In this document: positions 7,346-49,576 of the stretch, one piece after another
Layout: every line of letters starts with the position of its first letter
How positions within the stretch are numbered: the stretch's first letter is position 1
Assembly (NCBI GenBank): GCA_964016885.1
Contig: OZ024741.1
Location: 238,452,001-238,516,000 of the forward strand
Direction: 5' to 3'
DNA: 64,000 nt
Source of the DNA: Eledone cirrhosa
Taxonomy: Eukaryota
Position numbers and translations under genes: made by a program
Notes under the pieces: generated by a model
The model's input: the letters and a program-made list of their open reading frames with translations, nothing else
Told to the model about the DNA's origin: nothing
The model's database searches: none

Positions 7346-8063
7346 ATAAAACGAGGGACAGAATTTAAACAAATGCCTTTCAAATGAAGATTTTTATTTA
7401 ACTCTATTTGAACATATAGAAACCTGAAGTTATTTATACTTCAGGGCAAAATGAAAGTGACTGAAACAATATCGTCATCATTTTATGTTCTCTTTTTCAT
7501 GATTACATGGTTATAAATATAAAATTATATTGAATTGAATTCTAAGCAAATGCAAATGAGTTTCATTTATATTATAAGAAGCAGAGTGAAGTTAATTGAT
7601 TCATAGAGTATTTAACAATATATATGCAGTGTAATATAATTATTCTGTATCTTGATATTCTCAATCATATACAAGCAGTCCTGATATCATCTATAATTAA
7701 GACACAATTTAAATGAAGAGAAATAATTATATATCTAATGTTCCCTGTTTAACCTGAGTAGTAGAAATATATTTAATATTATATATGAATTATAACAATG
7801 TATATGGAATTATGTTATTAAATACAATAGATTGACAGATCAGTATTTGCATAATGGTCACTGTTAAAAATATCTTTCTTCCCAAAGTAACTACACTACT
7901 ACAGTAGTAATTGCTCTTGTAAATGGCTACATTGCTCTCTGGCTATCTATTATAAAGTATTATCATGAAATACTGTTATATTTATAATCTATTTCTCATA
8001 TCTTCATGTGAAATATATATTCCCAGAGCATCTAATGTAAAATGTCAATATAAAGAGACTTAC

Positions 8064-8230
8064 CTATAATGTTTAATCCTTTGTTTGTGTCTCTTACAGA
8101 AGACATTTATTCTGACGTAGTGTTCCAGTGTAACTGCTGCTGTAGTAGTGTGACAATGGCAGTATCTTGATGATGTAGATTTGTGAGTCATAGTGGGAGC
8201 CAACTACACTTTGGATGATCTTATTTATCT
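8064..8230 (-). promoter_or_regulatory. Conserved module X1: putative promoter/non-coding first exon of P1
   Basis: GATAAATAA, TGACTCA (8184-8190), CAGCAGCAGTTACACTGGA, AG|GTAAGT donor; five copies in the window. Confidence 0.65.
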
Positions 8231-9033
8231 GTACATATTGTATTTATTAAATTTAATTTATTTTACCCAATGTTTCAAATATTAAATAATGAATTTTGCA
8301 ATAAATATTTCTGATTTATACTTAACTACATTAAAATATTTATAAGTGATATTCATTCCTTGTACACGGGATGTTTACAGCACACTAATGTGTACACAAA
8401 TTCACTGAGTGTTATATGTAAAACATTATTTTCTAACCTCAGTGATAATTTCATAAGACTTATTGCAGAGGATTAATCTATAAAATATTTACTAACGTTA
8501 TAAATTATATATATTTTTTTACAATATCTTCTGTTACTTTATTATTTTTTCATAATATAAATAATAATATGAAATATCAATGTGTATTTAAAATGTTAAT
8601 ATTATTATCATCACCATAGTAGAAATGGTAAGTAGTTGGAATAGTGTTCTTCATATAATCTTCGGATGGTAGATTATATGGGGCTAAATGTCCTTTTCTT
8701 CCCTCTAGTATTGATACTAATGATATATGAACAAGAATTCCATATTATACCCATATTTCTGAAGCGTTTTGCCCAATGTATGATAAAAATAAACCAATGA
8801 GGATATTTGGGAATTCTCTAAAATCATGTCATTTAATTCTTTCCTTCTCAAGATATAACAAACATATTTCCAAATACATATTCTTCAATATTACTTTGAA
8901 TTAATAGGTTGTTTACTAATTAATCTAATTTCATTTTAAAACAGAAGCAATGTTCTAATTTTATTGAAGTATTTATGTTAAAAATAAAATAATCTCCAAG
9001 CAGGATAATTGCAGTTGTGTTAACTTGAGCTTA

Positions 9034-9122
9034 CTATTTTTTATATATTGGTTCTAAATATGTATCTTGTTCATGTTCACCTTTTGGTGTTGGTGGGATA
9101 TTTGGTGTGTAGTTACTGTATT
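9034..9122 (-). CDS. Pcdh: P2 terminal coding exon 3
   Basis: 89 nt from acceptor to TAG, same peptide as P1 exon 3. Confidence 0.9.
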
Positions 9123-9243
9123 CTGGAAAATAGATAAATACATTATAAATAGTATTAGAAGGGAAAGTTATCTTTATATGTATGGAAAAATATTATTTTC
9201 TAAATGAAGCAACTATTATCATATTCATTCTTATGATAATAAT

Positions 9244-9427
9244 TGTTTCTACTTTAGGCACAAGGCCAGCAACTACCCAGTACATTACTGGTACTTTATT
9301 TTATCGACCCCGTAAGGATGAAAGGCAAAGTTAACCTCGGCGGGATTTGAACTCAGACTGTAAAGGGACGTAACTATGCTAGAAAGCATGGCGTCCAACC
9401 CTCTACCGATACTGCCAATTCACCGCC
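9244..9427 (-). mobile_element. Full-length tRNA-derived SINE in P2 intron 2
   Basis: A-box TGGCAGTATCGG, B-box GAGTTCAAATCC, 14-nt TSD cttatgataataat; empty site in P1 and P3. Confidence 0.9.
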
Positions 9428-9440
9428 CTTATGATAATAA

Positions 9441-9692
9441 TGAAAATTATTGTGTACAGTTCTCAGGTGCACTACAACTCATCAAAGGTGCATGTATAGT
9501 ACATAGAATAATGTACAAATGCCAGGAAAGTGAATAGTGTATGAGTCATGATACACACACATGCATGCATGTGTATAGAGGGGGAATATCAGTTGTGGTG
9601 TTGGTAAATTTCAGGAAGCATGGGAGTTTTGAAGGATGCAGTGTCCCGACAGCTAACATCTGATGCAGGTAATTTGTTCTGTGCTTCAGTAA
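9441..9692 (-). mobile_element. CR1-type LINE 3' fragment in P2 intron 2
   Basis: Paralogous to 560..808. Confidence 0.8.
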
Positions 9693-9888
9693 CTATGGGC
9701 ATTTTGTTTCTTCTTTCAATTTTACATGACTTTTACCTTGTTATATTAATAAACATCTTTTTAAATAGTTCCCACTAAATATTGTATAAAATACATTAAT
9801 TACTCTTATATTAGTTAAATATGGTTTAATGATATAATATGTTACAATTGTGCCAGTGAATTAATAAAAAATGAATATCCACTATTAC

Positions 9889-10036
9889 CTGATGTTTGAT
9901 GTGTAATATCTCCTTCACTCAAACCCCGTTTATGTTCTCTTTGAGATGGTAATGTATCACTTAAGTTGTTTGATGTCACAATACTGCTGCTATCACCTTG
10001 CTCACAAGACCCATCTGAAATCTGCATATTGTATAT
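9889..10036 (-). CDS. Pcdh: P2 cytoplasmic exon 2
   Basis: 148 nt, AG/GT boundaries, near-identical to 1028..1175. Confidence 0.9.
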
Positions 10037-10577
10037 CTGTTATGAAACAACAAAGATTTCAATGCACATTTGAAAGATGAAAGTACATACTATAACTATA
10101 TATTTTTACATCTTTGCAGAAAAATAATAATTCTTTTTACTGTATCAGAATGTTAAGGAGATTTAAGGAAAGTATTTTTAATTTCAACTATCAGCTTTGA
10201 AAATAGTAAATATCATATGACTGGTGTTGTATACCTAATCAGAACATCTGTTATTGTTTTGAGAATCTCTGATATTTAATATATCAAATTGGTTTATGAG
10301 ATATATAGATCTCTGAAATCAGGATATGAATATTTTTGAAATAAATTTTACTGTTATTATAATTTTTGTTATCAGAATTGTCAATATTTACTATAACAAA
10401 TAGTTTCTATTATATAATTCCTTCTTAAAATAAGATATGATTAAACTGAGAATAAATTTTACTGTTATTATTCAAAGTCGTAGGAAAATATATGAAGAAA
10501 ATTAAATATGATTGTATATAATTAAATGTAAATACATGAAAAATAATATTTAAGAGGTGGATTTACAGCATAGTTAC

Positions 10578-12977
10578 CTGTGGAACAGGTGGAAGTCTTC
10601 TGGGTGTTGTTGAGAATTTCCATTCATTAGTTAACTGCTCCATCTCTGGATAATATGGACTTTTAGGGTTTATTGACTGAAGATTTCTAGCAAATATATC
10701 ATCTGCATTTCTGGTTATTGCAACAGGATTGTTAGTGTGATACAGTATTTGTCTCATCTCAGTCGGAGATAGGAATTTTGGATTATCTATTGTTGTAGGT
10801 GAGTTATTGGTGTGATTAATACATCTGAAAACACACAGTGTTATTGACACTACAATAGCCACAGATATTATTACAGCTGCTGCTACAATGATAATTACCC
10901 AAGTCATATTGAGGTTGTTACCAGTCTGTAAGTGGACTGCAGTCAACATTGGAGATGTATCATTACTAACAAACAGTGTTAGTATGATAGAAGTTGTTAC
11001 TGATTGAACTGGTGTACCACCATCTTTCACTATAAACTGTAGGTCATATGTTCCTGCATCATTTTGGTAAACTGCCCGAGAGAAAGATAAGACACCAGTG
11101 TGGGAGTTGACTGTAAACAGGTTTTTATCATTAGATCTCAGTATTCCATATGTGAGGAAAGCATTGTTTCCAGTGTCTTTGTCAGAGGCTTTCAGAATGG
11201 TGATGTCTTTCTTACTGTGTGGATCATAGTGGACATCTAGATTGTAAGGGTCATTAATAGGAAAAGTAAAATAGGGGGCATTATCATTTTTATCTAGAAT
11301 CTCAATAACAATATTGGCAGTGTTATTCAGAGAAGGTGTTCCATTATCTTTGACTAAAATCTGGAAGTTATAGATGTCTTTCACTTCCCGATCTATTGAT
11401 TGTGATGTAGAAATAAATCCATATTTTGTAAGTTGGAAAGGAATGTTATCATTGTTGTTATCATTGATGATAGAATATGTAAGTTGACCCCCATCATCAA
11501 GATCAGGGTCTGTAGCATTGATGAAGCCAATAGGGAAGTCAACTTTCTGGTTTTCATAGGTGAGGAATTGGAATGTATCTTTGGTAAAATGTGGTTGTAC
11601 ATCATTGACATCAGTTACTTTGACAGAGAATTGTTTCTTAGTCTTTAACTGAGGTGATCCCATGTCATGACATACAATAGATACAACATAGTGATCTATA
11701 ATTTCCCTATCAAGAGGTTCTTTCACCAATATTTTATATTCTTTAGAACCCATGTTAGAAAGTTGAAATATTTTATGTTGAATATTACACTTAATTTGTC
11801 CATTAGGTCCACTATCAGTGTCAATGACCATAACATAAGCTATAAAACTTCCAAATTTACTTGCTTCTGAAATAGCTGTAGAAGTCTCTGTTAAAGGAGT
11901 TAAAAAATCTATATTTATAGTTGGAGCATTATTTTGAATGCTAACTACATTAATAATTAACACTGCTTTAGAACTTAATGAAGGAATTCCACCATCTCTA
12001 GCTTCAACATACAATTGGTATTTACTTTCTTTATTTCTAAAGAAATCTTCATTAGTGAAAATTTCTCCAGATTTGGAATTTAATTTGAAATATTTTCTGG
12101 CATACTTATTTGTATTTCTGTGTAAATAGTAGGTGATATTTCCATTTTGACCAGAATCTAAATCTGTAGCTGATAAAACAAACACAGGGGAAGATATATG
12201 ATGTGTATCACTGATAGTTGTATTATATATTTTTTCAGTTAATATTGGTCTGTTATCATTTACATCAATAACAGATATTTCTATGTTTAGAAAACCTACT
12301 TTTTGTGGTGAACCTCCATCTTTAGCCACTAACTGTAACATATAAGTGTCTTTTAATTCCCTGTCTAACACTCCTTGTAGAGTAATTTTAAGTATATTCA
12401 TTCCATCAGTTTCTTTAAATATGGTCAGTGAGAATTTCTTACTTTTATCATTAAGTTTATATGTGATGTTAGAATTGAGAACACCAATGTCTTTATCAAC
12501 AGCATTTGGTATTGTTTTAGTTGAACCTTTTCCATCTGTTTCATAAAATATTATTTCCAGTTGATTTTTTGGAAACTCTGGCTGATGGTCATTAATATCT
12601 TCTATGAATATTTTAATCTTCAATATCTTTATAGATGTTTCTGATATTCTCACTGCAACTTTAATAAATTTGGAACATCCTTTGTTATATGTACACAGAG
12701 ACTCAGCATCCAGTGTCTGTGTAGTGTATAGTTTTCCTGTGTTGGTGACATTGAATAAGTGAGAACCACTTGACACTGTCCTTTGTAGTTGTGTAAATGT
12801 AATGAGACTGTGTTGTTGATGTGTAAGGGAGTATGTTAAGTTGGAATCAACAGCAATGTCTCCTATATAGGTGTGAGGACTGTCTTCTTCATTGACATGA
12901 TAAATAAGATCTAAGGACACAACAGAATACATGAATCCGAAGAGAAGATAAATCGGTAGAGTGCTGATTATAACCAT
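10578..12977 (-). CDS. Pcdh: Protocadherin P2, large coding exon
   Basis: 804-aa ORF, 6 cadherin repeats plus TM; donor CAG|GTAACT; acceptor tttttctag at 13020-13021. Confidence 0.96.
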
Positions 12978-13427
12978 TGTTGTAATTCATTATTTATTGT
13001 ATTTCATAAACCAATATATCTAGAAAAAAATAATGAAACATGTTAACTTAATTATACAATAATATATACAAATTTTTCTGAGTCGAATATATAACATGTC
13101 ATATTTACAATACTATATATTGAATAATACTTTAAAACTGGATTTAGTTAATAAAAAGATTGAACTTCATTTTTGCTGTTTAGCTAGGAAGTGAAAGACT
13201 ATACCCATGACGCATACTGGGCCTCTGATTTGCAGGAAGGCATTCAAAAGTTATGCTCAGTTTCGTGACCTGATTTGAATGCTTGCAGGTTCGTTGAGTT
13301 AAACTTGGTGAAAAATTGACACAGCTAACCAAATAATCACAACTGTTTTAAACTCAGAATATAACTAAAGACTTAGCATCTTTTTTGAGTGATTTAGGAT
13401 CTTAAATGATTTTATTGAGCATCTCAC

Positions 13428-16362: not shown

Positions 16363-16530
16363 CTATAATGTTTAATCCTTTGTTTGTGTCTCTTACAGAA
16401 GACATTTATTCTGACGTAGTGTTCCAGTGTAACTGCTGCTGTAGTAGTGTAACAATGGCAGTATCTTGATGATGTAGATTTGTGAGTCATAGTGGGAGCC
16501 AACTACACTTTGAATGATCTTATTTATCTG
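16363..16530 (-). promoter_or_regulatory. Conserved module X2: putative promoter/first exon of P2
   Basis: Same motifs; TGACTCA at 16483-16489; donor at 16362. Confidence 0.65.
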
Positions 16531-17345: not shown

Positions 17346-17434
17346 CTATTTTTTATATATTGGTTCTAAATATGTATCTTGTTCATGTTCACCTTTTGGT
17401 GTTGGTGGGATATTTGGTGTGTAGTTACTGTATT
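17346..17434 (-). CDS. Pcdh: P3 terminal coding exon 3
   Basis: 89 nt from acceptor to TAG. Confidence 0.9.
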
Positions 17435-17805
17435 CTGGAAAATAGATAAATACATTATAAATAGTATTAGAAGGGAAAGTTATCTTTATATGTATGGAAA
17501 ATATTCTTTTCTAAATGAAGCAACTATTATCATATTCATTTTTATGATAATAATGAAAATTATTGTGTACAGTGCTCAGGTGCACTACAACTCATCAAAG
17601 GTGCATGTATAGTACATAGAATAATGTACAAATGCCAGGAAAGTGAATAGTATATGAGTCATTATACACACACATGCATACATGTTCCCACTAAATATTT
17701 TATAAAATACATTAATTACTCTTATATTAGTTAAATATGGTTTAATGATATAAATATGTTACAATTGTGCCAGTGAATTAATAAAAAATGAATATCCACT
17801 ATTAC

Positions 17806-17953
17806 CTGATGTTTGATGTGTAATATCTCCTTCACTCAAACCCCGTTTATGTTCTCTTTGAGATGGTAATGTATCACTTAAGTTGTTTGATGTCACAATA
17901 CTGCTGCTATCACCTTGCTCACAAGACCCATCTGAAATCTGCTTAGTGTATAT
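17806..17953 (-). CDS. Pcdh: P3 cytoplasmic exon 2
   Basis: 148 nt, AG/GT boundaries, open frame. Confidence 0.9.
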
Positions 17954-18493
17954 CTGTTATGAAACAACAAAGATTTCAATGCACATTTGAAAGATGAAAG
18001 TACATACTATAACTATATATTTTTACATCTTTGCAGAAAAATAATAATTCTTTTTACTGTATCAGAATGTTAAGGAGATTTGAGCAAAGTATTTTTAATT
18101 TCAACTATCAGCTTTGAAAATAGTAAATATCATATGACTGGTGTTGTATACTTAATCAGAACATCTGTTATTGTTTTGAGAATCTTTGATATTTAATATA
18201 TCAAATTGGTTTATGAGATATATAGATCTCTGAAATCAGGATATGAATATATTTGAAATAAATTTTACTGTTATTATAATTTTTGTTATCAGAATTGTCA
18301 ATATTTATTATAACAAATAGTTTCTTATATATAATTCCTTCTTAAAATAAGATATGAATACACTGAGAATAAATTTTACTGTTATTATTCAAAGTCGTAG
18401 GAAAATATATGAAGAAAATTAAATATGATTGTATATAATTAAATGTAAATACATAAAAATAATATTTAAGAGGTGGATTTACTGCATAGTTAC

Positions 18494-20902
18494 CTGTGGA
18501 ACAGGTGGAAGTCTTCTGGGTGTTGTTGAGAATTTCCATTCATTAGTTAACTGTTCCATCTCTGGATAATATGGACTTTTAGGGTTTATTGACTGAAGAT
18601 TTCTAGCAAATATATCGTCTGCATTTCTGGTTATTGCAACAGGATTGTTAGTGTGATACAGTATTTGTCTCATCTCAGTCGGAGATAGGAATTTTGGATT
18701 ATCTATTGTTGTAGGTGAGTTATTGGTGTGATTAATACATCTGAAAACACACAGTGTTATTGACACTACAATAGCCACAGATATTATTACAGCTGCTGCT
18801 ACAATGATAATTACCCAAGTCATATTGAGGTTGTTACCAGTCTGTAAGTGGACTGCAGTCAACATTGGAGATGTATCATTACTAACAAACAGTGTTAGTA
18901 TGATAGCAGTTGTGACTGATTGAACTGGAGTACCACCATCTTTCACTATAAACTGTAGGTCATATGTTCCTGCATCATTTTGGTAAACTGTCCGAGACAA
19001 AGATAAGACACCAGTATGGGAGTTGACTGTAAACAAGTTTTTATCATTAGATCTCAGTATTCCATATGTGAGGAAAGCATTGTTTCCAGTGTCTTTGTCA
19101 GAGGCTTTCAGAATTGTGATGTCTTTCTTACTGTGTGGATCATAGTGTACATCTAGATTGTAAGGGTCATTAATAGGAAAGGTTAAATAGGGAGCATTAT
19201 CATTTTTATCTAGAATCTCAATAACAATATTGGCAGTGTTATTCAGAGAAGGTGTTCCATTATCTTTGACTAAAATCTGGAATTTATAGATGTCTTTCAC
19301 TTCCCGATCTATTGATTGTGATGTAGAAATAAATCCATATTTTGTAAGTTGGAAAGGAATGTTATCATTGTTGTTATCATTGATGATAGAATATGTAAGT
19401 TGACCCCCATCTTCAAGATCAGGGTCTGTAGCATTGATGAAGCCAATAGGGAAGTCAACTTTCTGGTTTTCATAGGTGAGGAATTGGAATGTATCTTTGG
19501 TAAAATGTGGCGGTACATCATTGACATCAGTTACTTTGACAGAGAATTGTTTCTTAGTCTTTAACTGAGGTGATCCCATGTCATGACATACAATAGATAC
19601 AACATAGTGATCTATAGTTTCTCTATCAAGAGGTTCTTTCACCAATATTTTATATTCTTTAGAACCCATATTAGAAAGTTGAAACATTTTATGTTGAATA
19701 TTACATTTAATTTGTCCATTGGGACCACTATCTGTGTCAAAAACCATAACATAAGCTATAAAACTCCCAATTTTACTTGCTTCTGAAATAGCTGTAGAGG
19801 TTTCAGTTAAAGGAGATAAAAAATCTATATTTATAGTTGGGGCATTATTTTGAGTGCTAATTACATTAATGATTAACATTGTTGTAGAACTTAATGAAGG
19901 AATTCCACCATCCCTGGCTTCAATGTACAGTTGATATTTACTTTCTTTATTTCTAAAGAAATCTTCATTGGTAAAAATTTCTCCAGTTTTATGAATTAAC
20001 TTGAAATGTCTTTTAGCATATTCATTTGTATTTCTGTGTAAATAGTAAGTAATATTTCCATTTTGACCAGAATCTAAATCTGTAGCTGATAAAACAAACA
20101 CAGGAGAAGATATATGATGTGTATCACTGATAGTTGTATTATATGATTTTTTAGTAAATATAGGTCTGTTATCATTTACATCAATAACAAATATTTCTAT
20201 GTTTAGAAAACCTACTTTTTGTGGTGAACCTCCATCTTTAGCCACTAACTGTAACATATAAGTGTCTTTTAATTCCCTGTCTAACACTCCTTGTAGAGTA
20301 ATTTTAAGTATATTCATTCCATCAGTTTCTTTAAATATGGATAGTGAGAATTTTTTACTTTTATCTTTTAGTGTATATGTGATGTTAGAATTGATAACAC
20401 CAATGTCTTTATCAACAGCATTTGGTATTGATTTTGTAGAGCCTTTAGCTTCAGTTTCATAAAATTCTATTTTTATTTGTTTTTTTGGAAACTCTGGCTG
20501 ATGGTCATTAATATCTTCTATGAATATTTTAATCTTCAATATCTTTATAAATGTTTCTGATATTCTCACTGCTACTTTAACCATTCTGGAACATTCCTTT
20601 TTATATGTACACAGAGACTCAGCATCCAGTGCCTCTGTAGTGTATAGTTTTCCTGTGTTAGTGACATTGAATAAGTGAGAACCACTTGACACTGTCCTTT
20701 GTAGTTGTGTAAATGTAATGAGAGTGTGTTGTTGATGTGTAAGAGAGTGTGTTAAGTTAGAATCAACAGCAATGTCTCCTATATAGGTGTGAGGACTGTC
20801 TTCTTCATTGACATTGTATGTAATGTTTTTAGATACAACAGAATACATCAGTCCACAGAGAAGGTGAAACAGGAGGGTGTTGATCATAATCATTGTTATC
20901 AT
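18494..20902 (-). CDS. Pcdh: Protocadherin P3, large coding exon
   Basis: 807-aa ORF, 6 cadherin repeats plus TM; donor CAG|GTAACT; acceptor ttcttttattcttcag near 20935. Confidence 0.96.
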
Positions 20903-21109
20903 TCATTATTATTCACGAGTATATATCTTGAAAGCTGAAGAATAAAAGAAAGGAAGTTTATTTAACTATACATTCACATATTATGTGAAATCCATACAAA
21001 TTTACTATGTGAAATTCATATTTTTAACAAGATCAAGAACATATAATCTTTGGAACTAGTAAAATATATCCTATTGTATATCATGTAGAGGTTTAAAAAC
21101 TTCTGAATG

Positions 21110-31574: not shown

Positions 31575-31741
31575 CTTCATTGTTTAATCCTTTGTTTGTG
31601 TCTCTTACAGAAGACATTTATTCTGACGTAGTGTTCCAGTGTAACTGCTGCTGTAGTAGTGTGACAATGGCAGTATCTTGATGATGTAGATTTGTGAGTC
31701 ATAGTGGGAGCCAACTACACACTGGGGGATTTTATTTATTT
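31575..31741 (-). promoter_or_regulatory. Conserved module X3: putative promoter/first exon of P3
   Basis: Near-identical to X1 despite diverged flanks; TGACTCA at 31695-31701; box reads AATAAATAA in this copy. Confidence 0.65.
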
Positions 31742-32502: not shown

Positions 32503-32591
32503 TTATTTTTTATATATTGGTTCTAGATAGGTATCTTGTTCATGTTCACCTTTTGGTGTGGGTGGTATATTTGGTGTGTAGTTACTGTATT
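32503..32591 (-). CDS. Pcdh: P4 terminal coding exon 3
   Basis: 89 nt from acceptor to TAA; peptide conserved with synonymous changes. Confidence 0.9.
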
Positions 32592-32872
32592 CTGGAAAAT
32601 AGAGAAACATTATGAATAATATTTAAAAAGTATAGATTTTTAATATATTATACTTATAAAACAATATTTCTTTCTCATTTAAATGAACATTATTGTATTT
32701 TTTTAAATTTCAATTTTATGTAACGTTTAACTGCTTATAATAAAACATACATTTAGACACTTTATTTTATTTAACCCTTATTTTACTATAAAAAGATTCA
32801 ATGTTAAAACCACTGGTATCAGTGTGTTAATAAGAAATTAATTGGCACTATTGTTAACATTTAGTAAATTAC

Positions 32873-33017
32873 CTGATGTCTGGTGTGTAATATCTCCTTC
32901 ACTCCAACCACGTTTATGTTCTCTTTGAGATGGTAATGTATCATTGAGATTGTTTGATGTCACAATACTGTTGCTGTCACCTTGCTCGCAAGGCTCACCT
33001 GACTGCTTATCATATAT
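32873..33017 (-). CDS. Pcdh: P4 cytoplasmic exon 2 (IYDKQSGEPCEQGDSNSIVTSNNLNDTLPSQREHKRGWSEGDITHQTS)
   Basis: 145 nt (frame-preserving 3-nt indel versus P1), AG/GT boundaries, flanking introns diverged. Confidence 0.9.
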
Positions 33018-33169
33018 CTGTTATTGAATTAACAACATTTTAGATACACATTTGAAAAGTTTGATAAAACATTATATAATAAGAAATTAGAACAGATCTA
33101 TCCACACACGCACAACTAAATGACTATTTCATTTTCTGATAAGTAATTATTGAATTTAAGTTGTTGACA

Positions 33170-33490
33170 AGGAGCTCATATCTATATTCTACACTTAAAC
33201 TCCTGTCCAAACACAATACTCTATAGCATAACTCATCTCTTTGCTCTACACTTTAACTCATCTCCATGTTCATCTAGAGTAATATCTATGCTTTATAGTT
33301 CAATTTATCTCCATACTCTATACTACAATTCATTTTCATACTCTAAACTTCAACTTAACTCTATACTTAATAAATCAACTCCTTTCCATACTTTGTGCTT
33401 CAACTCAACTCTATGCTCCATAGTTCAACTTGTATTCAAACTTATAGTTCAGCTTATCATAATACACTATGAATCATCTCATCTCTTTTT
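33170..33490. repeat. Degenerate ~25-nt minisatellite (AACTCATCTCTATACTCTA-like) in P4 intron 1
   Basis: Recurrent aactca/ctctat units; related shorter array at 41525-41660 in P5 intron 1. Confidence 0.55.
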
Positions 33491-34040
33491 GTCCTTACTG
33501 ATGTGTTGATCAAATACTTTTGAATCAACTCACATTAATGATGTTGCATTGCTTTGATATGCCATAAGATGTTATGCTGAAGTAAATTTACAAAGTGTTT
33601 AGAATTAGTTCCAATGCTTTTGTGCTATTTACAGTGTTGGTTTGACATAATCAACTACACCTAATTCATTGATATCAATTAGCTCCAGATCAACCTCAAA
33701 TAAGAAGAACAATGATAAAAGATATTTGAAGCATGACCATCATGTCTTTTTATAATTACTTTAACCTTATTAATTTTTCCTTCTATAAAGATAGTACATA
33801 AACATTATCTGAGCTGATAAAGTTATTAAGTAGAGCTGAAAGAAATGTCTATTCAACATTCATATGTAAATGTCTGATGTATGGCAATTCATTGATTGAA
33901 TGCTTAAAATAGAATATGAATATATTTAAAATAAATTTTGCTGTTATTCAATTACATGAAAATTACATGAAAAGATTTGTATAATTAAATGTAAAAACAG
34001 TTAAAATAATATTTCAGAGATGGATTTACTGCATAAGTAC

Positions 34041-36440
34041 CTGTGGAACTGGTGGTAATCTTCTGGGTGTTGTTGAGAATTTCCAGTCATTGGTTAACTG
34101 TTCCATCTCTGGATAATATGGACTTTTAGGGTTTATTGACTGAAGATTTCTAGTAAATATATCGTCTGCATTTCTAGTTATTGCAACAGGATTGTTGGTG
34201 TGATACAGTATTTGTCTCATCTCAGTCGGAGATAGGAATTTTGGATTATCTATTGTTGTAGGTGAGTTATTGGTGTGATTAATACATCTGAAAACACACA
34301 GTGTTATTGACACTACAATAGCCACAGATATTATTACAGCTGCTGCTACAATGATAATTACCCAAGTCATATTGAGGTTGTTACCAGACTGTAAGTGGAC
34401 TGCAGTTAACATGGGAGATGTATCATTACTAACAAACAATGTTAGTATGATAGCAGTTGTTGCTGACTGAACTGGTGTACCACCATCTTTCACTATAAAC
34501 TGTAGGTCATATGTTCCTGCATCATTTTGGTAAACTGCCCGAGAGAAAGATAAGACACCAGTATGGGAGTTGACTGTAAACAGGTTTTTATCATTAGATC
34601 TCAGTATTCCATATGTGAGGAAAGCATTGTTTCCAGTGTCTTTGTCAGAGGCTTTCAGAATTGTGATGTCTTTCTTACTGTGTGGATCATAGTGGACATC
34701 TAGATTGTAAGGGTCATTAATAGGAAAGGTTAAATAGGGAGCATTATCATTTTTATCTAGAATCTCAATAACAATATTGGCAGTGTTATTCAGAGAAGGT
34801 GTTCCATTATCTTTGACTAAAACCTGGAATTTATAGATGTCTTTTACTTCCCGATCTATTGATTGTGATGTAGAAATAAATCCATATTTTGTAAGTTGGA
34901 AAGGAATGTTATCATTGTTGTTATCATTGATGATAGAATATGTAAGTTGACCTCCATCTTCAAGATCAGGGTCTGTAGCATTGATGAAGCCAATAGGGAA
35001 GTCAACTTTCTGGTTTTCATAGGTGAGGAATTGGAATGTATCTTTGGTAAAATGTGGCTGTACATCATTGACATCAGTTACTTTGACAGAGAATTGTTTC
35101 TTAGTCTTTAACTGAGGTGATCCCATGTCATGACATACAATAGATACAACATAGTGGTCTATAATTTCTCTATCAAGAGGTTCTTTCACCAATATTTTAT
35201 ATTCTTTAGAATCCATATTAGAAAGTTGAAACATTTTATGTTGAATATTACATTTAATTTGTCCATTAGGTCCACTATCTGTGTCAATAACCATAACATA
35301 AGCTATAAAACTCCCAATTTTACTTGCTTCTGAAATAGTAGTAGAAGTCTCTGTTAAAGGAGATACAAAATCAATATTTATAGATGGAGCATTATTTTGA
35401 TTGTTAATTACATTAACTGTTAACATTGTTTTGGATCTTAATGAAGGAATTCCACCATCTCTGGCTTCTATATATAATTGGTATTTACTTTCTTTATTTC
35501 GAAAGAAATCTTCATTGGTGAAAATTTCTCCAGTTTTATGAATTAACTTGAAATGTCTTCTTGCATATTCATTTGTATTTCTGTGTAAATAGTAAGTAAT
35601 ATTTCCATTTTGACCAGAATCTTTGTCTGTAGCTGATAATACAAATACAGGAGAAGATCTATGATGTCTATCATTGATTGTGACATTGTATAATTTCTTT
35701 GCAAATATTGGTGGGTTATCATTGACATCTATAACAGATATCTCTATTCTTAGAATACCTTCTTTTGGTGGTGAACCTCCATCTTTTGCCACCAACTGTA
35801 ACATATAAGTGTGTTTTTCTTCTCGGTCTAACATCCTTTCTAGAGTGATTTTAAGTATATTTATTCCATCAAATCCTTTAAATATGAAAAGTGAGAATTT
35901 CTTACTTTTATCATTGAGTTTATATGTGATGTTAGAATTGAGAACACCAATGTCTTTATCAACAGCATTTGGTATTGTTTTAGTTGAGCCTTTTCCATCT
36001 GTTTCATAAAATATTATTTCCAGTTGATTTTTTGGAAATTCTGGCTGGTGGTCATTAATATCTTCTATGAATATTTTAATCTTCAATATCTTCAGAAATG
36101 TTTCTGATTTCCTCACTGCTACTTTAACAATTCTGGAACATTCTTTGTTAGATGTACACAAAGACTCAGCATCCAGTGTCTGTGTAGTGTATAGTTTTCC
36201 TGTGTTGGTGACATTGAATAAGTGAGAACCACTTGACACTGTCCTTTGTAGTTGTGTAAATGTAATGAGAGTGTGTTGTTGATGTGTAAGAGAGTGTGTT
36301 AAGTTAGAATCAACAGCAATGTCCCCTATATAGGTGTGAGGACTGTCTTCTTCATTGACATGATATGTAATGTCTATAGACACAACAGAATACATCAGTC
36401 CACAGAGAAGTGAAAACTGTAAGGTGTTGATTATAATCAT
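34041..36440 (-). CDS. Pcdh: Protocadherin P4, large coding exon
   Basis: 804-aa ORF, 6 cadherin repeats plus TM; donor CAG|GTACTT; acceptor ttttctttttcag at 36479-36480. Confidence 0.96.
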
Positions 36441-36745
36441 TGTTGCAATTCATTATTATGATTCATAAATCAATATATCTGAAAAAGAAAATTGTGCATG
36501 CTGATCTAATCATACAATGATATAAACAATTGCTTATATTCTTTAAAACTAGGCAAATAAACATTTTAGAAAACCGTCATAGAAAAAAAAAGCTACATAG
36601 AAAGAACGTCTTAAATTTCGAGAATACCCATTTCAAACAAACATAATATTTACAATATATTATGCAATATATTGTTGCAAAACAATTCAGAATAACCACT
36701 ATTTCCACAGGATTGGATTTTGCAATCTTTCTAAACTATCAGAAC

Positions 36746-36761
36746 AAAGTTATCTCCCCCT
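36746..36761 (-). promoter_or_regulatory. Conserved upstream element AGGGGGAGATAACTTT (P4)
   Basis: Motif match within a block alignable to 4860-4970. Confidence 0.5.
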
Positions 36762-36796
36762 GCCTATTTTCTAATAACATCATTTAATTTCTTTTC

Positions 36797-39316: not shown

Positions 39317-39484
39317 CTACATTGTTTAATCCTTTGTTTGTGTCTCTTACAGAAGACATTTATTCTGACATAGTGTTCCAGTGTAACTGCTGCTGTTGTA
39401 GTGTGACAATGCCAGTTTCATGATGGTATAAATTTGTGAGTCATAGTAGGAGCCAACTACACTACAGAAGATTTTTATTTATCT
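39317..39484 (-). promoter_or_regulatory. Conserved module X4: putative promoter/first exon of P4
   Basis: TGACTCA at 39437-39443; donor AG|GTAAGT. Confidence 0.65.
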
Positions 39485-40255
39485 GGGCATATTGAATTTC
39501 TTTAAATATATTTTATTCGATGAATAAACTATTTAATAATGAAATTTACATAAGTATTTTTGATGTATATTAAACTACATTATAAGATATATAAGTAATA
39601 ATTACCTTTTGTACATGGATATGTACAGCACACTAACATATGTGCACACGCACATGTACATATTCATGAATTGAATTCTGCAGTATGTAAAACATTAACT
39701 TCTAACCTTCTTGGCGATTTCATAAGATATATTGTAGAAGGATTAAACCACAAAATATTTATTTAGGTTAAATATTTTATAGATTTTCTGCAATTTTTTC
39801 TGTTATTTTAAAAATAATTTTAATAATAATTTATATTGTAATAATTGAAATGATTAAGTATTTCAGAATATTAAAGATGGTAGCATAAATTGTAGCTTGT
39901 TGGAATAATTTTATTCTAGAAGTGTTGTTTCTCTAATCTTCAGACTGCTGATTATATGATGCTAAAAGTCCTTGTTCCACTATTGACACCAGTAATATAC
40001 ACATAAGAATTGAAATTACTATATCATTTTCCTTGTACATTTTGGCCGAGTGTATGATCAATATAAACCAACAATGACATTTGAGAATATTTTGAATTTA
40101 AATTATTTAATTAATAGAGATTTAATGAAAACATTTGCTAATAGATATTTCTCAGTGTATGAGTTTGGATTAATTATTTGCCAATTATTCTTATTTTATT
40201 TAAACACAGAAGCAACATCCTGGGAAAGGAATTGTAGTTGTTAACATTGTGTTTA

Positions 40256-40344
40256 CTATTTTTTATATATTGGTTCTAGATATGTATCTTGTTCATGTTC
40301 ACCTTTTGGTGTTGGTGGGATATTTGGTGTATAGTTACTGTATT
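40256..40344 (-). CDS. Pcdh: P5 terminal coding exon 3
   Basis: 89 nt from acceptor to TAG. Confidence 0.9.
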
Positions 40345-41182
40345 CTGGAAAATAGAAAAACATTATGAATAGTATTTAAAACATATAGATTTCTTAATGT
40401 ATTATGTTATGAAAAGAAAAGAAAAACTTTTTTCTAAATTAATACTACATTTTTGTATTATATATATATACATTTTTAAAATTCAGTTTTATGTAACTTT
40501 TAAATTTTTAAAGAATTTATCATCATTACTATTTAACGACTATTTTTCATGCTTGCCTGGGTGAGGCAGGTTGTTATGTTTTGAGTCTAGACTAGGCAGA
40601 TGACCATGTCTTGTCCATATATTCCATTTTAGGCTTGGCTTCTTCAGGAGGATACCCTTCCTCATACCAACCACCTCACAGTGTGTTCCGGGAACATTGT
40701 TTGGTGACTTGGGAGAGGAAGCATCAAGTCAATTAGCTTGGAGAGAATGAGTAGTCCCTGTCAGTAGATTGGAAGGTGTGTCTGGCTTTCCATGCTGGCA
40801 TGTATTGAGCAAGGAATTGAATCAAGTATATGGGTAGGAATAAAGGGGGGGGGCACACATCTTTCTTTCATGCTGACATGGGTTATTTAGGTAAATAAAT
40901 TGGGGAGAGGTTGGATGGGAAGGGGAGCACAATATGGGTGGGGTAGGAACACTTCTTTTTCTTTCTGTACTTTTTTTATCCAGCTGTCATTTTCCATATG
41001 CATCAGATGTCCAAACTATTGTAGTCGTCTCTCTTGTATATTGCATCTAATCCATTTTATCTTTCCTCTGATTATTTTATATGACACATTTATATTACAA
41101 TAAGAAAGGTTAATGTTATAAATATGATAGAATCGTATGAGTGTGCTTATAAGAAATTAATATTCACTGTTTAGTAAATTAC

Positions 41183-41327
41183 CTGATGTCTGTTGTGTAA
41201 TATCTCCTTCACTCCATCCACGTTTATGTTCTCTCTGAGATGGTAATGTATCACTGAGGTTATTTGATGTCACAGTACTACCATCTTGAATTTGCTCACA
41301 AGGCCCATCTAATTGCTTATTATAGAT
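41183..41327 (-). CDS. Pcdh: P5 cytoplasmic exon 2 (IYNKQLDGPCEQIQDGSTVTSNNLSDTLPSQREHKRGWSEGDITQQTS)
   Basis: 145 nt, AG/GT boundaries, lies within ORF 41157..41345. Confidence 0.9.
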
Positions 41328-43094
41328 CTGTAATTCAAATAACAAAACTTTAGATACATATTTGAGAGTTTACAATACATATAAGGATTTTGTTAGAAAA
41401 CCAGACAAATTTGTAATTTGAGTAAATCAATTATACATTCAAATATATAAATATATGTGTGTGTGTGTCTGTCTGTCTACTATATTTTCTGATATATAAT
41501 TATCAAATACAAGTTAATGACAGGGACCTCATCTCTTTACTCTATTCTTCATTTCCATAGTCTATACAAATCATCTCAATACTCTGCAACTAGTCTCTAT
41601 GCTCTATAATCCAACTCATCTCTATACCCCACTTTACTCTATATTTCAGCTAATCTCTATATGTCTTTGTAGATGTGTTGCCGAAACACTTTTCAGTTAA
41701 CATGTATTTATGATGTTGCATTTCTTGGATATGAGATAATAATATGCATTGAGGTAAATTTGAAAAGTACACAGAGTTAGTCTTAGAATTATTGTGCTAT
41801 TTGAATCCTTGGTTAAACTTGAGCAAATACACTTAATTTGTTGTTGTTTTTTAGCCCCAGGTCAACTTCAAATGAGCTGACCAATAATGGACATTCCAAA
41901 TATAGCCATCATATCTTTTACATTATCCAATTTGCCCTTCTATAAAATAATGTATAAAAATTATCTGAATCTGGTAAAATTATTGTATATAATAAAATCT
42001 ACAATTAGGTTTGTTTGAAAGAAACGTTTCTCCAATGATATGTAAATGTGAAAACAAAGTGTTTATCTGAGAAATAACTACTAGAAAGTATTGCAACTGG
42101 AGAATTAAAATGGAACATTACAAGTGAGTATAAAATAAATAGAGGTCTTGAGAAAATATTGATACTAGAATAAAACGGAAATACCCCCACAGAAATCTGA
42201 AGATGAAAATAATTGTTTCCAAAGGAAACTGGATAAAATATTCAGTAGAGACGCCTAACCAATAAACCCAATCTGTGCATTGTATTCATGTTACATTGTA
42301 TCTATGTTGCATACAAAGATAAATATAAACATTCAGTTATTAATATGAGCTTCCAACATTTGAGTAACCTTGAAAACCTGTGGATTTAAATGAAATGGTA
42401 ACTTTGAAATAAATTCCAAATGTCCAAACTAGCCAGATGTAGTTTTAATGTTATCCACACAATATTGACTTATTTCTTCACAGCATATATTACATGTTTA
42501 TATCAGAGTGCCTTGATTTGAGATGGTGTTTTGAAATTAAAACAATTACTGTATAGAGTCATTTTAGCCATATAATACCACACAATATCTGTAAATTCCA
42601 GTGGATATATATAACCTTATTTCCTAGTTTCAAAATTTTCATCACAGGAAATAATTATATATATATAAAAAAATAGTGTTAACAGTTTTTGTGTGCCTTT
42701 AGTTAAAATGATACTTCAGTGCAGAAATTGCTCATGATCTATTTTGATAATTCAACTACTAGGTGACCAGTAGTTACAAAGAGATATATCATGAAATTCT
42801 AGGCAAACCTTATGATATTTACTTTAGTATGGATGTCATTGAACCTTTGAGGTAACAACAATCTTTCAAAACATTGCGTTTAAAAATGCTGAAATATTTG
42901 TCGCTGGTTCTGTACATCACACCGGAAAACCTGTTTTCATAAACATTGTTTCCCAAGATCCGAACACATTGAAAATAAATTTTACTTTCATTATTGAATC
43001 ATATCATAATAATATAATAATAAATGATAATGATATAATTAAATGCAAAAACAATACAAATATTACAAGAGAGATGAACATATTATATAGGTAC

Positions 43095-45503
43095 TTGTGG
43101 AACTGGTGGAAGTCTTCTGGGTGTTGTTGAGAATTTCCATTCATTAGTTAACTGCTCCATCTCTGGATAATAAGGACTTTTAGGGTTTATTGACTGAAGA
43201 TTTCTAGCAAATATATCGTCTGCATTTCTGGTTATTGCAACAGGATTGTTGGTGTGATACAGTATTTGTCTCATCTCAGTCGGAGATAGGAATTTTGGAT
43301 TATCTGTTGTTGTAGGTGAGTTATTGGTGTGATTAATACATCTGAAAACACACAGTGTTATTGACACTACAATAGCCACAGATATTATTACAGCTGCTGC
43401 TACAATGATAATTACCCAAGTCATATTGAGGTTGTTACCAGTCTGTAAGTGGACTGCAGTCAACATTGGAGATGTATCATTACTAACAAACAGTGTTAGT
43501 ATGATAGCAGTTGTTACTGATTGAACTGGAGTACCACCATCTTTCACTATAAACTGTAGGTCATATGTTCCTGCATCATTTTGGTAAACTGTCCGAGAGA
43601 AAGATAAGACACCAGTATGGGAGTTGACTGTAAACAGGTTTTTATCATTAGATCTCAGTATTCCATATGTGAGGAAAGCATTGTTTCCAGTGTCTTTGTC
43701 AGAAGCTTTCAGAATTGTGATGTCTTTCTTACTGTGTGGATCATAGTGGACATCTAGATTGTAAGGGTCATTAATAGGAAAGGTAAAATAGGGATCATTA
43801 TCATTTTTATCTAGAATCTCAATAACAATATTGGCAGTGTTATTCAGAGAAGGTGTTCCATTATCTTTGACTAAAACCTGGAAGTTATAGATGTCTTTTA
43901 CTTCCCGATCTATTGATTGTGATGTAGAAATAAATCCATTTTTTGTAAGTTGGAAAGGAATGTTATGATTGTTGTTATCATTGATGATAGAATATGTAAG
44001 TTGACCTCCATCTTCAAGATCAGGGTCTGTAGCATTGATGAAGCCAATAGGGAAGTCAACTTTCTGGTTTTCATAGGTGAGGAATTGGAATGTATCTTTG
44101 GTAAAATGTGGCTGTACATCATTAACATCAGTTACTTTCACTGAGAATTGTTTCTTAGTCTTTAATGGAGGTGATCCCATGTCATGACATACAATAGATA
44201 CAACATAGTGATCTATAGTTTCTCTATCAAGAGGTTCTTTCACCAATATTTTATATTCTTTAGAACCCATATTAGAAAGTTGAAACATTTTATGTTGAAT
44301 ATTACATTTAATTTGTCCATTGGGACCACTATCTGTGTCAAATACCATAACATAAGCTATAAAACTTCCAATTTTACTTGCTTCTGAAATAGCTGTAGAG
44401 GTTTCTGTTAAAGGAGACACAAAATCAATATTTATATTTGGAATATTATTTTGATTGTTAATTACATTAACAGTTAACATTGTTTTGGACCTTAATGAAG
44501 GATTTCCACCATCTCTGGCTTCAATATATAATTGGTATTTACTTTCTCTATTTCTAAAGAAGTTATCATTGATGAAAATTTCTCCAGTTTGGGAATTTAA
44601 GTTGAAATGTCTTCTTGCATATTCATTTGTATTTCTATGTAAATAGTAGGTGATATTTCCATTTTGACCAGAATCTAAATCTGTAGCTGATAAAACAAAC
44701 ACAGGAGAAGATATGTGATGTGTATCACTGATAGTGATATTGTATCTTTTTTGGGTAAAAGCAGGTCTGTTATCATTGACATCAGTAACAGATATTTTTA
44801 TGCTTAGAATTCCCTCTTTTGGGGGGGAACCTCCATCTTTAGCAATCAATTGTAACATGTAGGTGTCTTTTAATTCTCTGTCTAATTTTTCTTCAAGCAT
44901 TATTTCTAGTACATTTATTCCCTCAGATTCTTTAAATATGGACAGTAAGAATTTTTTACCTTTATCTTTCAGTTTATATGTGATGTTAGAATTGAGAACA
45001 CCAATGTCTTTATCAACAGCATTTGGTATTGATTTTGTTGATCCTTTAGCTTCTGTTTCACCAAATTCTATTTTAGTTAGATCTTCAAAAAATTCTGGTG
45101 AATGGTCATTGATGTCTTTAATAAATATTTTTACCTTCAATATTTTTATAAATGTTTCTTCTTTCCTCACTGCTACTTTAACCATTCTGGAACATTCTTT
45201 GTTATATGTACACAGTGTTTCAGCATCCAGTGTCTGTGTAGTGTATAGCTTTCCTGTGTTGGTGACATTGAATAAGTGAGAACCACTAGACACTGTCCTT
45301 TGTAGTTGTGTAAATGTAATGAGAGTGTGTTGTTGATGTGTAAGAGAGTGTGTTAAGTTAGAATCAACAGCAATGTTTCCTATATATGTGTGAGGACTGT
45401 CTTCTTCATTGACATGGTAAGTGATGTCTATAGTCACAACAGAATATATCAGTCCATAGAGAAGGTAAAACTGTAAGATGTTGATTATAATCATTGTCAC
45501 CAT
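43095..45503 (-). CDS. Pcdh: Protocadherin P5, large coding exon
   Basis: 806-aa ORF, 6 cadherin repeats plus TM; donor CAA|GTACCT; acceptor tttcgttttag at 45533-45534. Confidence 0.96.
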
Positions 45504-45854
45504 TCATTATTATAATTCATAAATCTGTACATCTAAAACGAAATATAAAAATATTAGTTTAATCATGTACTTATATTATAGTTGCAAAATGTATATAAGA
45601 ATTTTAAATGTTGTTATATCTGTTTGGAAAATATTTGAAATTTGTAGAACAGTAGGTTAATTTGTTAATGTGAAACAAAAGCTGAATCAATATAAGTAAT
45701 GACTGAATGGATTTTATCAATGATATCTTTGCCTCGTATGTATATGTTACACTACCATATTGCCCATTCATATCACACAAAATCGATAAAACTATGTCGC
45801 CACTAGCTCTAATTGGATTTTAAAATTAAAATATATATATATATGTAAAAGGTA

Positions 45855-46349: not shown

Positions 46350-46532
46350 TTTTGGGGTTAGAAATGACTAGAGATCTGAACCAATCTGGATGCGATTAAG
46401 GAAAATCTCCAGAGGCTCATCTTGCAGGATGCAGAGGGCCTGGCACAGGACCACAAGTGATAGAGAGCACTGGTGGACCTGGTCAGCTCTATGCATGATG
46501 ACACTTCTGTGACCACTGAGCAAGAGCAATAG
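46350..46532 (+). mobile_element. RTE-like LINE 3' tail (family of 6200-7345)
   Basis: ctggtggacctggtcagctctatgca...gagcaagagcaa matches the reverse complement of 6210-6350. Confidence 0.65.
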
Positions 46533-47282
46533 ATATATATGATATCATTTTTTAGGAACAAAGTGTTGGGGTATAGGGTCCAGCAGAAGTGTTATAGCAT
46601 CGAACAAAATACATTGAATGATTTAGTTTGGGTTGTGTGTTTGAGTTAAAATTCTACCAATATGAGTTTGCCTTTTATGTTCAGTAAAGTAAAATAGTAG
46701 TCAACTAGTGAAGTTGATATAATCAACTGTTTGCTATCTTATTTTGCCGTTGTAAAAAATCATTGTTTTATTATTTTTCTTTTGATTAACCTATTTTACC
46801 AATGGAAATTGCTGAAGCTTCAATTTCCAATACAGTTATAAAAAAAAAAAAAAATTCCAATCATTGCTTCTATTTTACATGCAAGTGAGATTGATCTTCC
46901 TAGAATTTAAAAAAAATCATTTTTATTGGTATAATAATGTTACATATTTTATATATTCCATTTATATAGTCACTCAGTTTGCTGAATGTAATGGCAAAAT
47001 ATCTTTTAAAATACATATACTGTTTTTAATATGGTAATTACATGTTAAATAGCTTAAATGAGATGGTTGTTGTTGCAATACTGACCACTATTGGAGTTGA
47101 AACCAAGTTAATTAGTGAACATTTTATATCCAACTTCTATGGATACTGGAACTTTAGGGGCAATGTAGAAACATATATCTATATTCAAGTAGAGCTGATC
47201 ACAGCTCTTCAACCAAAATAACAATACATTACTTTAGTGATATGACACTGCTTCTCATTATATAGACAAGTTCTAATTTCAT

Positions 47283-47297
47283 AGAGTTATCCCCCTT
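47283..47297 (-). promoter_or_regulatory. Conserved upstream element AAGGGGGATAACTCT (P5)
   Basis: Motif match; weak flank homology (tatgtaagg, taactaa-gcac) to the P1 block. Confidence 0.45.
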
Positions 47298-47807
47298 TTC
47301 AATCTATATTTCCTTGTAAAATTTGAAGTTGATCCATATATGTAAGGCGATTGAAGAAATATTTCATTCACTTGAAATATTTCAGTTGCCTTATAACTAA
47401 AGCACATTATCAAATATTTGTCTTCTAAAATGTATTTCTTCATTTCGTGATGAAATAGGGACCTTGTCAGATTTATCTGTTAACTGCTACTGAAATTATT
47501 TGTTTAGAATAAGAAATTATTTATTCAGTTCAATAAAATGAGATAAATATATTAAAAAAATTATATGCTTGTAATATTTAGATTATTTTAGTTATTGTTG
47601 TGAATGCTTGATCATCAATTCTAAAACATACGTATCGCACAGACATAGTTGATGGTTTGTTCTGTTTAGCCATTAGGGGGAAAATGAAAAGAAATTTATA
47701 ATTCACACTTATGCAAGTTTAGCTGGCCCCCTAAAAAATTGCATCTCATAGGAGGTTGCTCAGGTGTTCTAATGATAGTCATCAATCCTATCATGAGAAA
47801 CACATGA

Positions 47808-47905
47808 ATGAAGCGCCTTATTCAAGAACACAATGCATCACTTGGCTTGAGAATCAAACCTATGACGTTATGATTGTGAGACCAGCACCCTAACCACTAG
47901 GCCAC
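47808..47905 (-). mobile_element. tRNA-derived SINE 5' part (second family)
   Basis: Reverse strand reads GTGGCCTAGTGGTTAGGGTGCTGG...GGTTTGATTCTC...TTGTGTTCTTGAATAAGGCGCTT. Confidence 0.7.
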
Positions 47906-49408
47906 AGAGTACATTGAAAAATCATGTCATTCTTTTTTACTAGAGAAAGGGGTTGTGCCCATGGCTATTACTGGCTATATGTATTTTATGTTTGTTTGTA
48001 ACATATGGAGAAGGGGAGAGGTAATAACTGTTTCTACTTTAGGCACAAGGTAATAACATTACGAAAAGAGTGTTGTGGTGTAGTTCTTGTAGGTAATTTC
48101 TTATTTTTTTAATGCTTTGTCTTAGATCTTTAAAGATGTAGTAGCAAGAATTTTGGCATTTGGAGTGGATAGTAGTCTCAAAATATGGACTGTAATTTTG
48201 TAAGAGATTTTGGTAGATGCTGTAATTGTTTGAAACCCAATGTATTGGTTTATTTCTTGTTTCTGGTATGTTGTGTTCATGAGTATTTCTAGTGTAATTA
48301 ATTATCTATGTATTTTGGTGACAAACATTATATTAAAAATTTAAATTATATTTTGTGAAATTAAATATTAAATTACTTTTGAAGTTATACATCTTACATA
48401 AAATATACCAATGATTTTTAAAAAGGAATGATAAGATGAGGATAATGATTGTCTTTTACAATTTGTTGTTCTTATCTAAATGATATGAGGAGATAATGAA
48501 ACCTTAATCTCCTTATATTACAGAGAAAAATAAAGTGATGGAAAATGTCACGAAAGAAATGTCAAAAATACAATATTTTCATATTTCTAAAAGTGTAATC
48601 TTTAGATTACACTTCTGTTAAAATTCATATTTTTAATAGGGTAACATCTTGAAAAATCTAAATATTTATGTAGGTAGTTGGTTCATTGAGCATTTTAAGA
48701 ATATATTTTTACTTCTGATTTTAAATTTCCCAAAGTGTACAAAATATTTATTAGCCAAGAAAAAATAATGATAGCGAATAGAAACTGGAAGTTAGTATTA
48801 AAAAAAACTATATTTAGTAATCAAAATCATTGACTCTATTGAATGAAAATATAGTTATTATACATGTATGTATAATATTATTAATACAATATACATCGTT
48901 AAATTAAGATGTATTTTCTCATAAAATTTTACATTATTTTAAAAGAACAAAAATATTGTAAATCAATATGTGATGTAATAAATATTGTAAAATATTGGTT
49001 ATAGATAGAAATTAATTCAAGAACTTAATTTCTACAATTGGTAATTATTATTTTAGTATCAATAAAGACATATTTATTAATAACGAATTAAACTGCTTAA
49101 ACTTCATAATACCAACAGTAAATTGAAAATGAGATATTTGTCATATGTTGAAAATATACTATTCAAATAATTTTAGTTGACAGATCAAAAATTTTGTTTA
49201 ATGGTAATTGTCAAAGATATCTTTGTTCTAGAAGTGACTATACTATTTTAGTAGCTAATCTTGATAATGGAGGAATGGATGTTTCTCCATTTTCTCATTA
49301 ATATGTATTCCTCTTGCAGATGTAGACAGTTTTATCTGTTATCCAATTCACCTACCTCAATATATTATCTAAATAATTAATGTAAAATTGCAGTGTAAAA
49401 AGACTTAC

Positions 49409-49576
49409 CTATTTTGTTTACTCCTTTGTTCTTGCCTCTTATAGAAGGCATTCATCATGGCGGAGTGATCCAGTGTAACTGCTGCTGTAGTAGTGCCACA
49501 ATAGCAGTATCTTAATGGTATAGATTTATGAGTCATGGAGAGATGATAGTTTCATTTTAAAGAATTTTATTTATCG
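49409..49576 (-). promoter_or_regulatory. Conserved module X5 (most divergent): putative promoter/first exon of P5
   Basis: Many substitutions, but TGACTCA (49529-49535), CAGCAGCAGTTACACTGGA, donor and spacing are retained. Confidence 0.6.

Follow-up and report, generated by a model that had tools for sequence, protein, structure and literature searches.

A conserved non-coding leader block, probably a first exon with core promoter, accompanies the protocadherin genes of Eledone cirrhosa arrays

In coleoids, protocadherin (Pcdh) genes form tight, head-to-tail sub-arrays on one chromosome, in which complete multi-exon genes have been duplicated and homogenised by conversion (PMC9068888; PMC6339937; PMC9795677). 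The portions of these accounts that were available give no leader exon, promoter or conserved non-coding element. According to the available part of PMC7811963, each isoform of the vertebrate clustered Pcdh genes has its own promoter and, at a near-fixed distance, a short conserved element; similar promoters stand before diverse ectodomains. This conserved sequence element (CSE) contains a CGCT box, is bound by CTCF and lies upstream of a large coding first exon; the variable exons are spliced to common constant exons, and the system also uses common enhancers and methylation. The short Dscam clusters of chelicerates are likewise tandem arrays of invertebrate recognition molecules and, in the excerpted text of PMC6339937, are said to use alternative promoter choice; they encode another protein family and are set against the octopod array by description only. 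Here, a stretch of 64,000 nucleotides from Eledone cirrhosa (hereafter the window; contig OZ024741.1, G000:C2:238452001-238516000), which lies within a field of Pcdh genes, is analysed for a short non-coding leader block that recurs with its genes.

The locus resembles the published coleoid sub-arrays in its organisation. Six minus-strand open reading frames (ORFs; P1 to P6) of 806-814 codons each occupy the window, which belongs to sub-array A (238.38-238.59 Mb); four other sub-arrays are referred to as B (238.03-238.30 Mb), C (239.95-240.23 Mb), D (239.27-239.67 Mb) and E (252.4-252.5 Mb). Pfam scans of the P1 and P6 proteins identified cadherin repeats (PF00028) and a Cadherin_2 N-terminus (PF08266), and the closest protein matches are protocadherins of Octopus vulgaris (84%) and Argonauta hians (79%). 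Every large ORF terminates at a splice donor, the residues PQ being followed directly by GT, and two small coding exons come after it. Joining the exons gives proteins of 877-881 amino acids in all six genes, with ends that match the Octopus and Argonauta proteins P0001 and P0003. Common constant exons, hinted at by the donor of each large exon, are ruled out, as every gene carries an exon 3 and an exon 4 of its own. The array genes are complete duplicates, comprising a leader exon, a large exon and two small coding exons.

We consider it probable that the leader block is conserved non-coding sequence, likely a first exon together with a core promoter, which has been copied with each gene from an ancestral leader, with boxes under selection and a 5' box specific to the sub-array. 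The observations behind this reading are one block per gene, confinement to Pcdh loci, one splice junction, deep conservation and a swap of motifs between sub-arrays. The five blocks located in the window by a preliminary description are all there, lying on the minus strand, and every one contains TGACTCA, CAGCAGCAGTTACACTGGA and an AG directly followed by GTAAGTCT (Table 1). The distance from TGACTCA to the donor, described as exactly 120 nt, has this value in all five and in 18 of the 19 copies across sub-array A, the remaining one measuring 109 nt; constant spacing among paralogous duplicates carries little weight by itself. The ATAAATAA element reported before TGACTCA is present, but its gap is 30-31 nt rather than 31-32 nt, and the word itself occurs in 14 of the 19 A copies. 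The distances given from the previous stop to the block are correct (761-815 nt, and 1760 nt for P6), and they hold because two more small coding exons follow each large one. The lack of a conserved acceptor also stood up to a manual count, AG lying directly before the block in only 9 of the 19 A copies, with no pyrimidine tract. Since no conserved acceptor precedes the block and promoter-type motifs lie at its 5' end, it is read as a first exon with promoter, and we infer that it contains the start site. AATAAA follows the stop of the upstream gene in all five gaps, and self-comparison of the window revealed no further non-coding segment that is conserved from gene to gene and has a donor.

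Splicing was assessed for the X4-P4 region, where contigs of four runs from related organisms were aligned to positions 33700-40300 at 80% likeness. The junction predicted in the preliminary description, 39317>36478, is found in one contig of run X1 (organism A, guessed to be RNA, depth 10.9) among the joints listed in the four runs. In this contig a single letter separates 36480 from 39320; as exon and intron both end in AG, the joint corresponds to 39317>36478 if one substitution is allowed. At 34041, where the large exon of P4 has its donor, six run X7 contigs depart from the genome, and their letters thereafter resemble exon 3. Acceptors 4214, 13019, 20934 and 36478 were located by script, and 45532 by manual counting along the sequence. 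The data support a non-coding exon for each gene that is joined to the downstream coding exon by splicing. Contig depth was set aside as a marker of the start site, the contigs being from related organisms; depths not used as evidence are those of the X4 bin, covered in all four runs (12.4, 6.0, 87.8 and 91.9), of the next bin upstream, which is low (1.8, 0, 3.7 and 8.0), and of 39888-40108, which is 0.

The preliminary description asked whether the block is confined to Pcdh clusters, and genome-wide search indicates that it is. All 43 exact matches of the 20-mer core in 3.0 Gb lie in Pcdh arrays on the gene strand (17 in A and 26 in C), against none for the reversed control. A 17-mer likewise gave 26 exact matches in 3.0 Gb, every one within A and B on the gene strand (control 0), and in a BLAST search with X1 the 40 scored matches, of 54 candidates, all fall on C2 at 238.1-240.2 Mb, gene strand. 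A dispersed repeat or transposon is ruled out by the absence of core copies outside Pcdh loci and by the restriction to the gene strand. A metagenome scan for the core gave 0 matches.

A profile search of 656 kb recovered 61 blocks, 19 in A, 19 in B, 20 in C and 3 between A and B. The automatically placed donor has GT in 60 of them, and in the remaining block GTAAGT lies 4 nt beyond it. Another 200 kb yielded 9 clear blocks in D and 7 weak matches for the 11 ORFs of E, with 0 for the reversed control. A block lies upstream of every intact gene in A (18), in B (17) and between them (3), and is missing in C and D only for the last gene at the edge of the stretch examined. Two blocks between intact ORFs were seen twice, and both cases flank broken genes. 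Of the 17 single and array-end Pcdh genes searched over 10-40 kb upstream, a clear block is present for 5, a weak one for 1, and none for the other 11.

Several related loci were noted. Broken Pcdh copies occur in A and B (G000:C2:238445217-238447639; 238582711-238583829; near 238155051); two of them retain a leader block, and the copy at the far end of A has none within 40 kb upstream. In one leader block (L110, G000:C2:238020266-238020589), a 21-nt unit that includes the core is repeated in tandem about eight times, with no long Pcdh ORF in the 20 kb downstream, and a strong block with donor (L092, G000:C2:238986141-238986236) has no long Pcdh ORF in the 26 kb downstream. In sub-array E (L081-L090, G000:C2:252.40-252.50 Mb), likely leader exons are full of long CAG/CAA/AAC repeats ending in GCAGTTACA, followed by the conserved donor.

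The blocks have a common order of boxes, namely a first box, CCATCAA, TTGTCACAC, CAGCAGCAGTTACAC(TGGA), CAA(A/T)GGAT and the donor, and in most copies of A, B and C the distance from the start of the core to the donor is 75-80 nt. TGACTCA is present in all 19 A blocks, all 9 D blocks recovered, one A/B intermediate and one single gene adjoining C; it is absent from B (0 of 19), C (0 of 20) and E (0 of 7). Of the 20 C blocks, 19 carry TGACGTG, at the same 17-nt register relative to CCATCAA, and between C and D three adjacent changes turn TGACTCA into another TGAC-containing motif. The B blocks have no first box and instead carry 2-4 copies of the core. A pattern joining TGACTCA to TTGTCACAC at a gap of 28-48 nt, which misses A (gap 27), returned 75 matches, 41 of them in D, against 45 for the control. 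Carriers of TGACTCA fall in three strongly supported clades of a tree of 24 proteins (17 array representatives and 7 singles), so the motif is likely ancestral. The preliminary view of AP-1 as the common element does not survive these counts: the deepest conservation lies downstream of TGACTCA, in a part that is probably transcribed, and TGACTCA is, judging from its distribution, a variable module rather than a universal core.

TGACTCA, as present in A and D, fits the AP-1 consensus TGA(C/G)TCA and is a putative AP-1 site, and TGACGTG is CRE/ATF-like. RYAAAYA, about 30-60 nt before the first box, is present in 19 of 19 A copies and, on our own reading, in 6 of 16 lineages against a background of 10%; it is forkhead-like and, having been picked after the fact, a lead only. 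TGACTCAC also fits an initiator pattern, but C retains TGAC and not TCAC. One further leader with TGACTCA (L099, G000:C2:239928100-239928320) has a long CA repeat opened between two boxes.

Conservation of the block exceeds that of its surroundings. The copies of sub-array A are 0.81-0.93 identical across the 140 nt preceding the donor, compared with 0.41-0.63 at positions upstream of -180 and 0.41-0.74 within the intron. When different sub-arrays are compared, the 135 nt that end at the donor align with scores of 49 (A-B), 53 (A-C), 41 (A-D) and 57 (C-D), against 16-17 for reversed sequence, and four flanking segments (two upstream, two intronic) score at control level. The proteins are 0.75 identical between A and B, and 0.56-0.62 for the remaining pairs among A to D. 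These comparisons support constraint on the block.

The coding sequence shows regional homogenisation in all four sub-arrays tested, the DNA from extracellular cadherin domain 5 to the transmembrane segment (EC5-TM) being 0.98 identical, against 0.78-0.85 for EC2-3. Across 18 of the 19 A units, the block averages 0.89 identity, the upstream flank 0.65 and the intron 0.72; block identity co-varies with both flanks (rho 0.71 and 0.77; Mantel p 0.001) and not with the flat EC5-TM region (0.98; rho 0.07). Because the A block tracks its flanks and not the homogenised region, slow descent is indicated rather than conversion, and the A leader blocks fit slow vertical descent under selection. Five successive leader blocks at G000:C2:238425186-238460260, about 8.8 kb apart, share 99-100% identity across 221 nt, the product of a very recent expansion in tandem.

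Several findings weigh against the reading of the block as a conserved first exon and promoter. The leader junction was seen in one contig, in one of the four runs with listed joints, from a related organism and a run only guessed to be RNA. AATAAA is common in AT-rich DNA of this sort, and short motifs such as the putative AP-1, CRE/ATF and forkhead sites are prone to arise by chance there. No block was found within 10-40 kb upstream of 11 of the 17 single or array-end genes. Block scores are low for B-C and B-D (28 and 25, against 17-18), and E is at control level. Four-fold sites, which are 0.55-0.65 identical for sub-array pairs with 0.56-0.62 protein identity (saturation lying near 0.34), are a poor neutral yardstick, since A-B reaches 0.82 although the flanks are unalignable. 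Lastly, identity across the block and the 380 nt preceding it is flat in C (19 units) and D (8 of 9), at 0.93-0.98, and does not track that of the flanks. This flatness fits gene conversion, and homogeneity inside C and D is therefore no proof of selection; selection and conversion both seem to act, to degrees that differ by sub-array.

The most serious alternative is that the block is an ordinary exon of the 5' untranslated region (5'UTR), carried along by gene duplication, with a similarity due mainly to conversion and to generic first-exon constraint and with boxes that hold no Pcdh-specific code. Coleoid arrays do duplicate whole genes and homogenise them by conversion, as the available text of PMC9068888 describes, the C and D cassettes are flat (0.93-0.98), and the TGACTCA box has been lost in B and in several single genes. 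We nevertheless regard this account as unlikely, since block similarity persists between sub-arrays whose flanks cannot be aligned, the A block tracks those flanks and not the converted region, and the three adjacent changes between C and D replace TGACTCA by another motif that contains TGAC.

The preliminary description put forward, as a candidate, a system of near-equivalent competing promoters, possibly activity-regulated. In a fuller form of this reading, the promoters would compete, for example for a common enhancer, each neuron would express a random few Pcdhs and AP-1 would provide a tie to activity. In its favour, divergent EC2-3 (0.84-0.85) stand behind near-identical cassettes (0.93-0.98) in C and D, and TGACTCA occurs in 19 of 19 A blocks, 9 of 9 D blocks and 41 places in D genome-wide. 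Near-identical cassettes before divergent EC2-3 would be compatible with a vertebrate-like mode of working. However, simple patterns for a CGCT box or CTCF-like core matched none of 73 blocks (gene strand, scanned over the 300 nt ending at the donor), CpG is depleted (observed/expected 0.04-0.23), and the genes have no constant exons in common. The octopod element differs from the vertebrate CSE in being a separate, spliced, CpG-poor non-coding exon before genes with their own last exons, and the octopod array is not a member of the vertebrate CSE/CTCF system. Single-cell papers, in the parts available, describe ubiquitous and cell-type-enriched Pcdhs and do not report stochastic choice (10.1101/2022.01.24.477459; PMC9795677). 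Taken with these points, competition among equivalent promoters appears quite improbable. Least probable is an internal exon reached by read-through from the 3' end of the previous gene or from an unseen upstream exon: the block lies only about 0.8 kb behind the previous stop, and the available text of 10.1101/2022.01.24.477459 mentions transcripts fusing octopus Pcdh genes, but no conserved acceptor precedes the block, single genes also have blocks, 2-12 kb upstream of the coding exon, and self-comparison of the window gave no second element of this kind.

The preferred reading, a conserved leader exon with promoter, can be set out as follows. A single ancestral leader, older than the split of A to D, would have given rise to all blocks, and the leader would have been copied along with every whole-gene duplication. 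One promoter per gene would then follow from whole-gene duplication, with no special system required. Purifying selection likely retains the inner boxes CCATCAA, TTGTCACAC, CAGCAGCAGTTACAC and CAA(A/T)GGAT, which may serve all arrays as downstream promoter elements or as 5'UTR or splicing elements. The 5' box would vary as a module between sub-arrays (TGACTCA for A and D, TGACGTG for C, no box for B) and would give each sub-array a common input, probably through bZIP factors. Promoters would thus be near-equal within a sub-array and different between sub-arrays. A more speculative extension, which we think rather unlikely, is that octopods have a Pcdh control code of their own: an ancestral cassette on >100 genes, near-identical within each sub-array, would differ between sub-arrays in its bZIP-type box (TGACTCA, TGACGTG or absent) and through multiplication of an inner core of 16-21 nt, allowing random, CTCF-independent choice under signals that differ per sub-array.

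Other roles for the block were considered and rejected. The ATG in tATGACTCA opens an upstream ORF of 42 codons in X1, X2 and X5, and a coding role is rejected because variable columns are spread evenly over codon positions (14/16/16), stops occur in 9 of the 19 A copies, and in-frame stops precede the main ATG. Another ATG lies within the last 6 nt before the donor (ACAATGNNN directly before GT) in B, D, E and some A blocks; it might open short upstream ORFs, and cannot extend the main frame because of the in-frame stops before the main ATG. Structured RNA was rejected on finding 0 consensus pairs in 12 blocks and no Rfam match on X4. Four weak Rfam matches at 39599-39676 lie outside the X4 block and below gathering scores.

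Table 1. Leader blocks and coding exons of the six Pcdh genes, in window positions unless marked otherwise.
Feature	Coordinates	Strand	Details
Leader block X1 (gene P1)	8064..8230	-	TGACTCA 8184-8190; core 8124-8143; donor after 8064
Leader block X2 (gene P2)	16363..16530	-	TGACTCA 16483-16489
Leader block X3 (gene P3)	31575..31741	-	TGACTCA 31695-31701; first intron 10.6 kb
Leader block X4 (gene P4)	39317..39484	-	TGACTCA 39437-39443; donor joined to 36478 in contig of run X1
Leader block X5 (gene P5)	49409..49576	-	TGACTCA 49529-49535; second sub-lineage of array
Leader block of P6			donor at G000:C2:238516643, just outside window
P1 coding exons	355..4214	-	large exon 4214-1717 (ATG 4116), 1175-1028, 443-355; 878 aa
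P2 coding exons	9034..13019	-	13019-10578 (ATG 12977), 10036-9889, 9122-9034; 878 aa
P3 coding exons	17346..20934	-	20934-18494 (ATG 20902), 17953-17806, 17434-17346; 881 aa
P4 coding exons	32503..36478	-	36478-34041 (ATG 36440), 33017-32873, 32591-32503; 877 aa
P5 coding exons	40256..45532	-	45532-43095 (ATG 45503), 41327-41183, 40344-40256; 880 aa
P6 coding exons	51337..56853	-	56853-54419 (ATG 56818), 52749-52593, 51425-51337; 881 aa

The window also contains remnants of mobile elements. Broken reverse-transcriptase (RVT_1) fragments lie in the first introns of P3 and P4, at 21119-22239 (+), 23483-24559 (+) and 36907-37650 (-), one of them adjoining a PHD-like finger, and much of the length of the first intron of P3 is due to the fragments inside it. 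A 242-codon open frame without a Pfam match (59952-60680, +) overlaps or adjoins a repeat present several times in the window.

No description of the per-gene leader, its conservation across sub-arrays or the motif swap was found in the literature searched, supplements aside, and the leader exon may already stand in public gene models as 5'UTR. The choice among 150-290 Pcdh genes in coleoid neurons has been treated in published accounts, in the parts available, in terms of numbers, arrays and cell-type expression, and not of cis-regulation. If the boxes serve basal transcription or splicing only, the leader would be a modest gain in annotation. A defined element of 130-170 nt per gene, with separable boxes and natural variants, would make the cis-regulation of coleoid Pcdhs testable, and the leader supplies sub-array-specific 5' primers for long-read and single-cell work.

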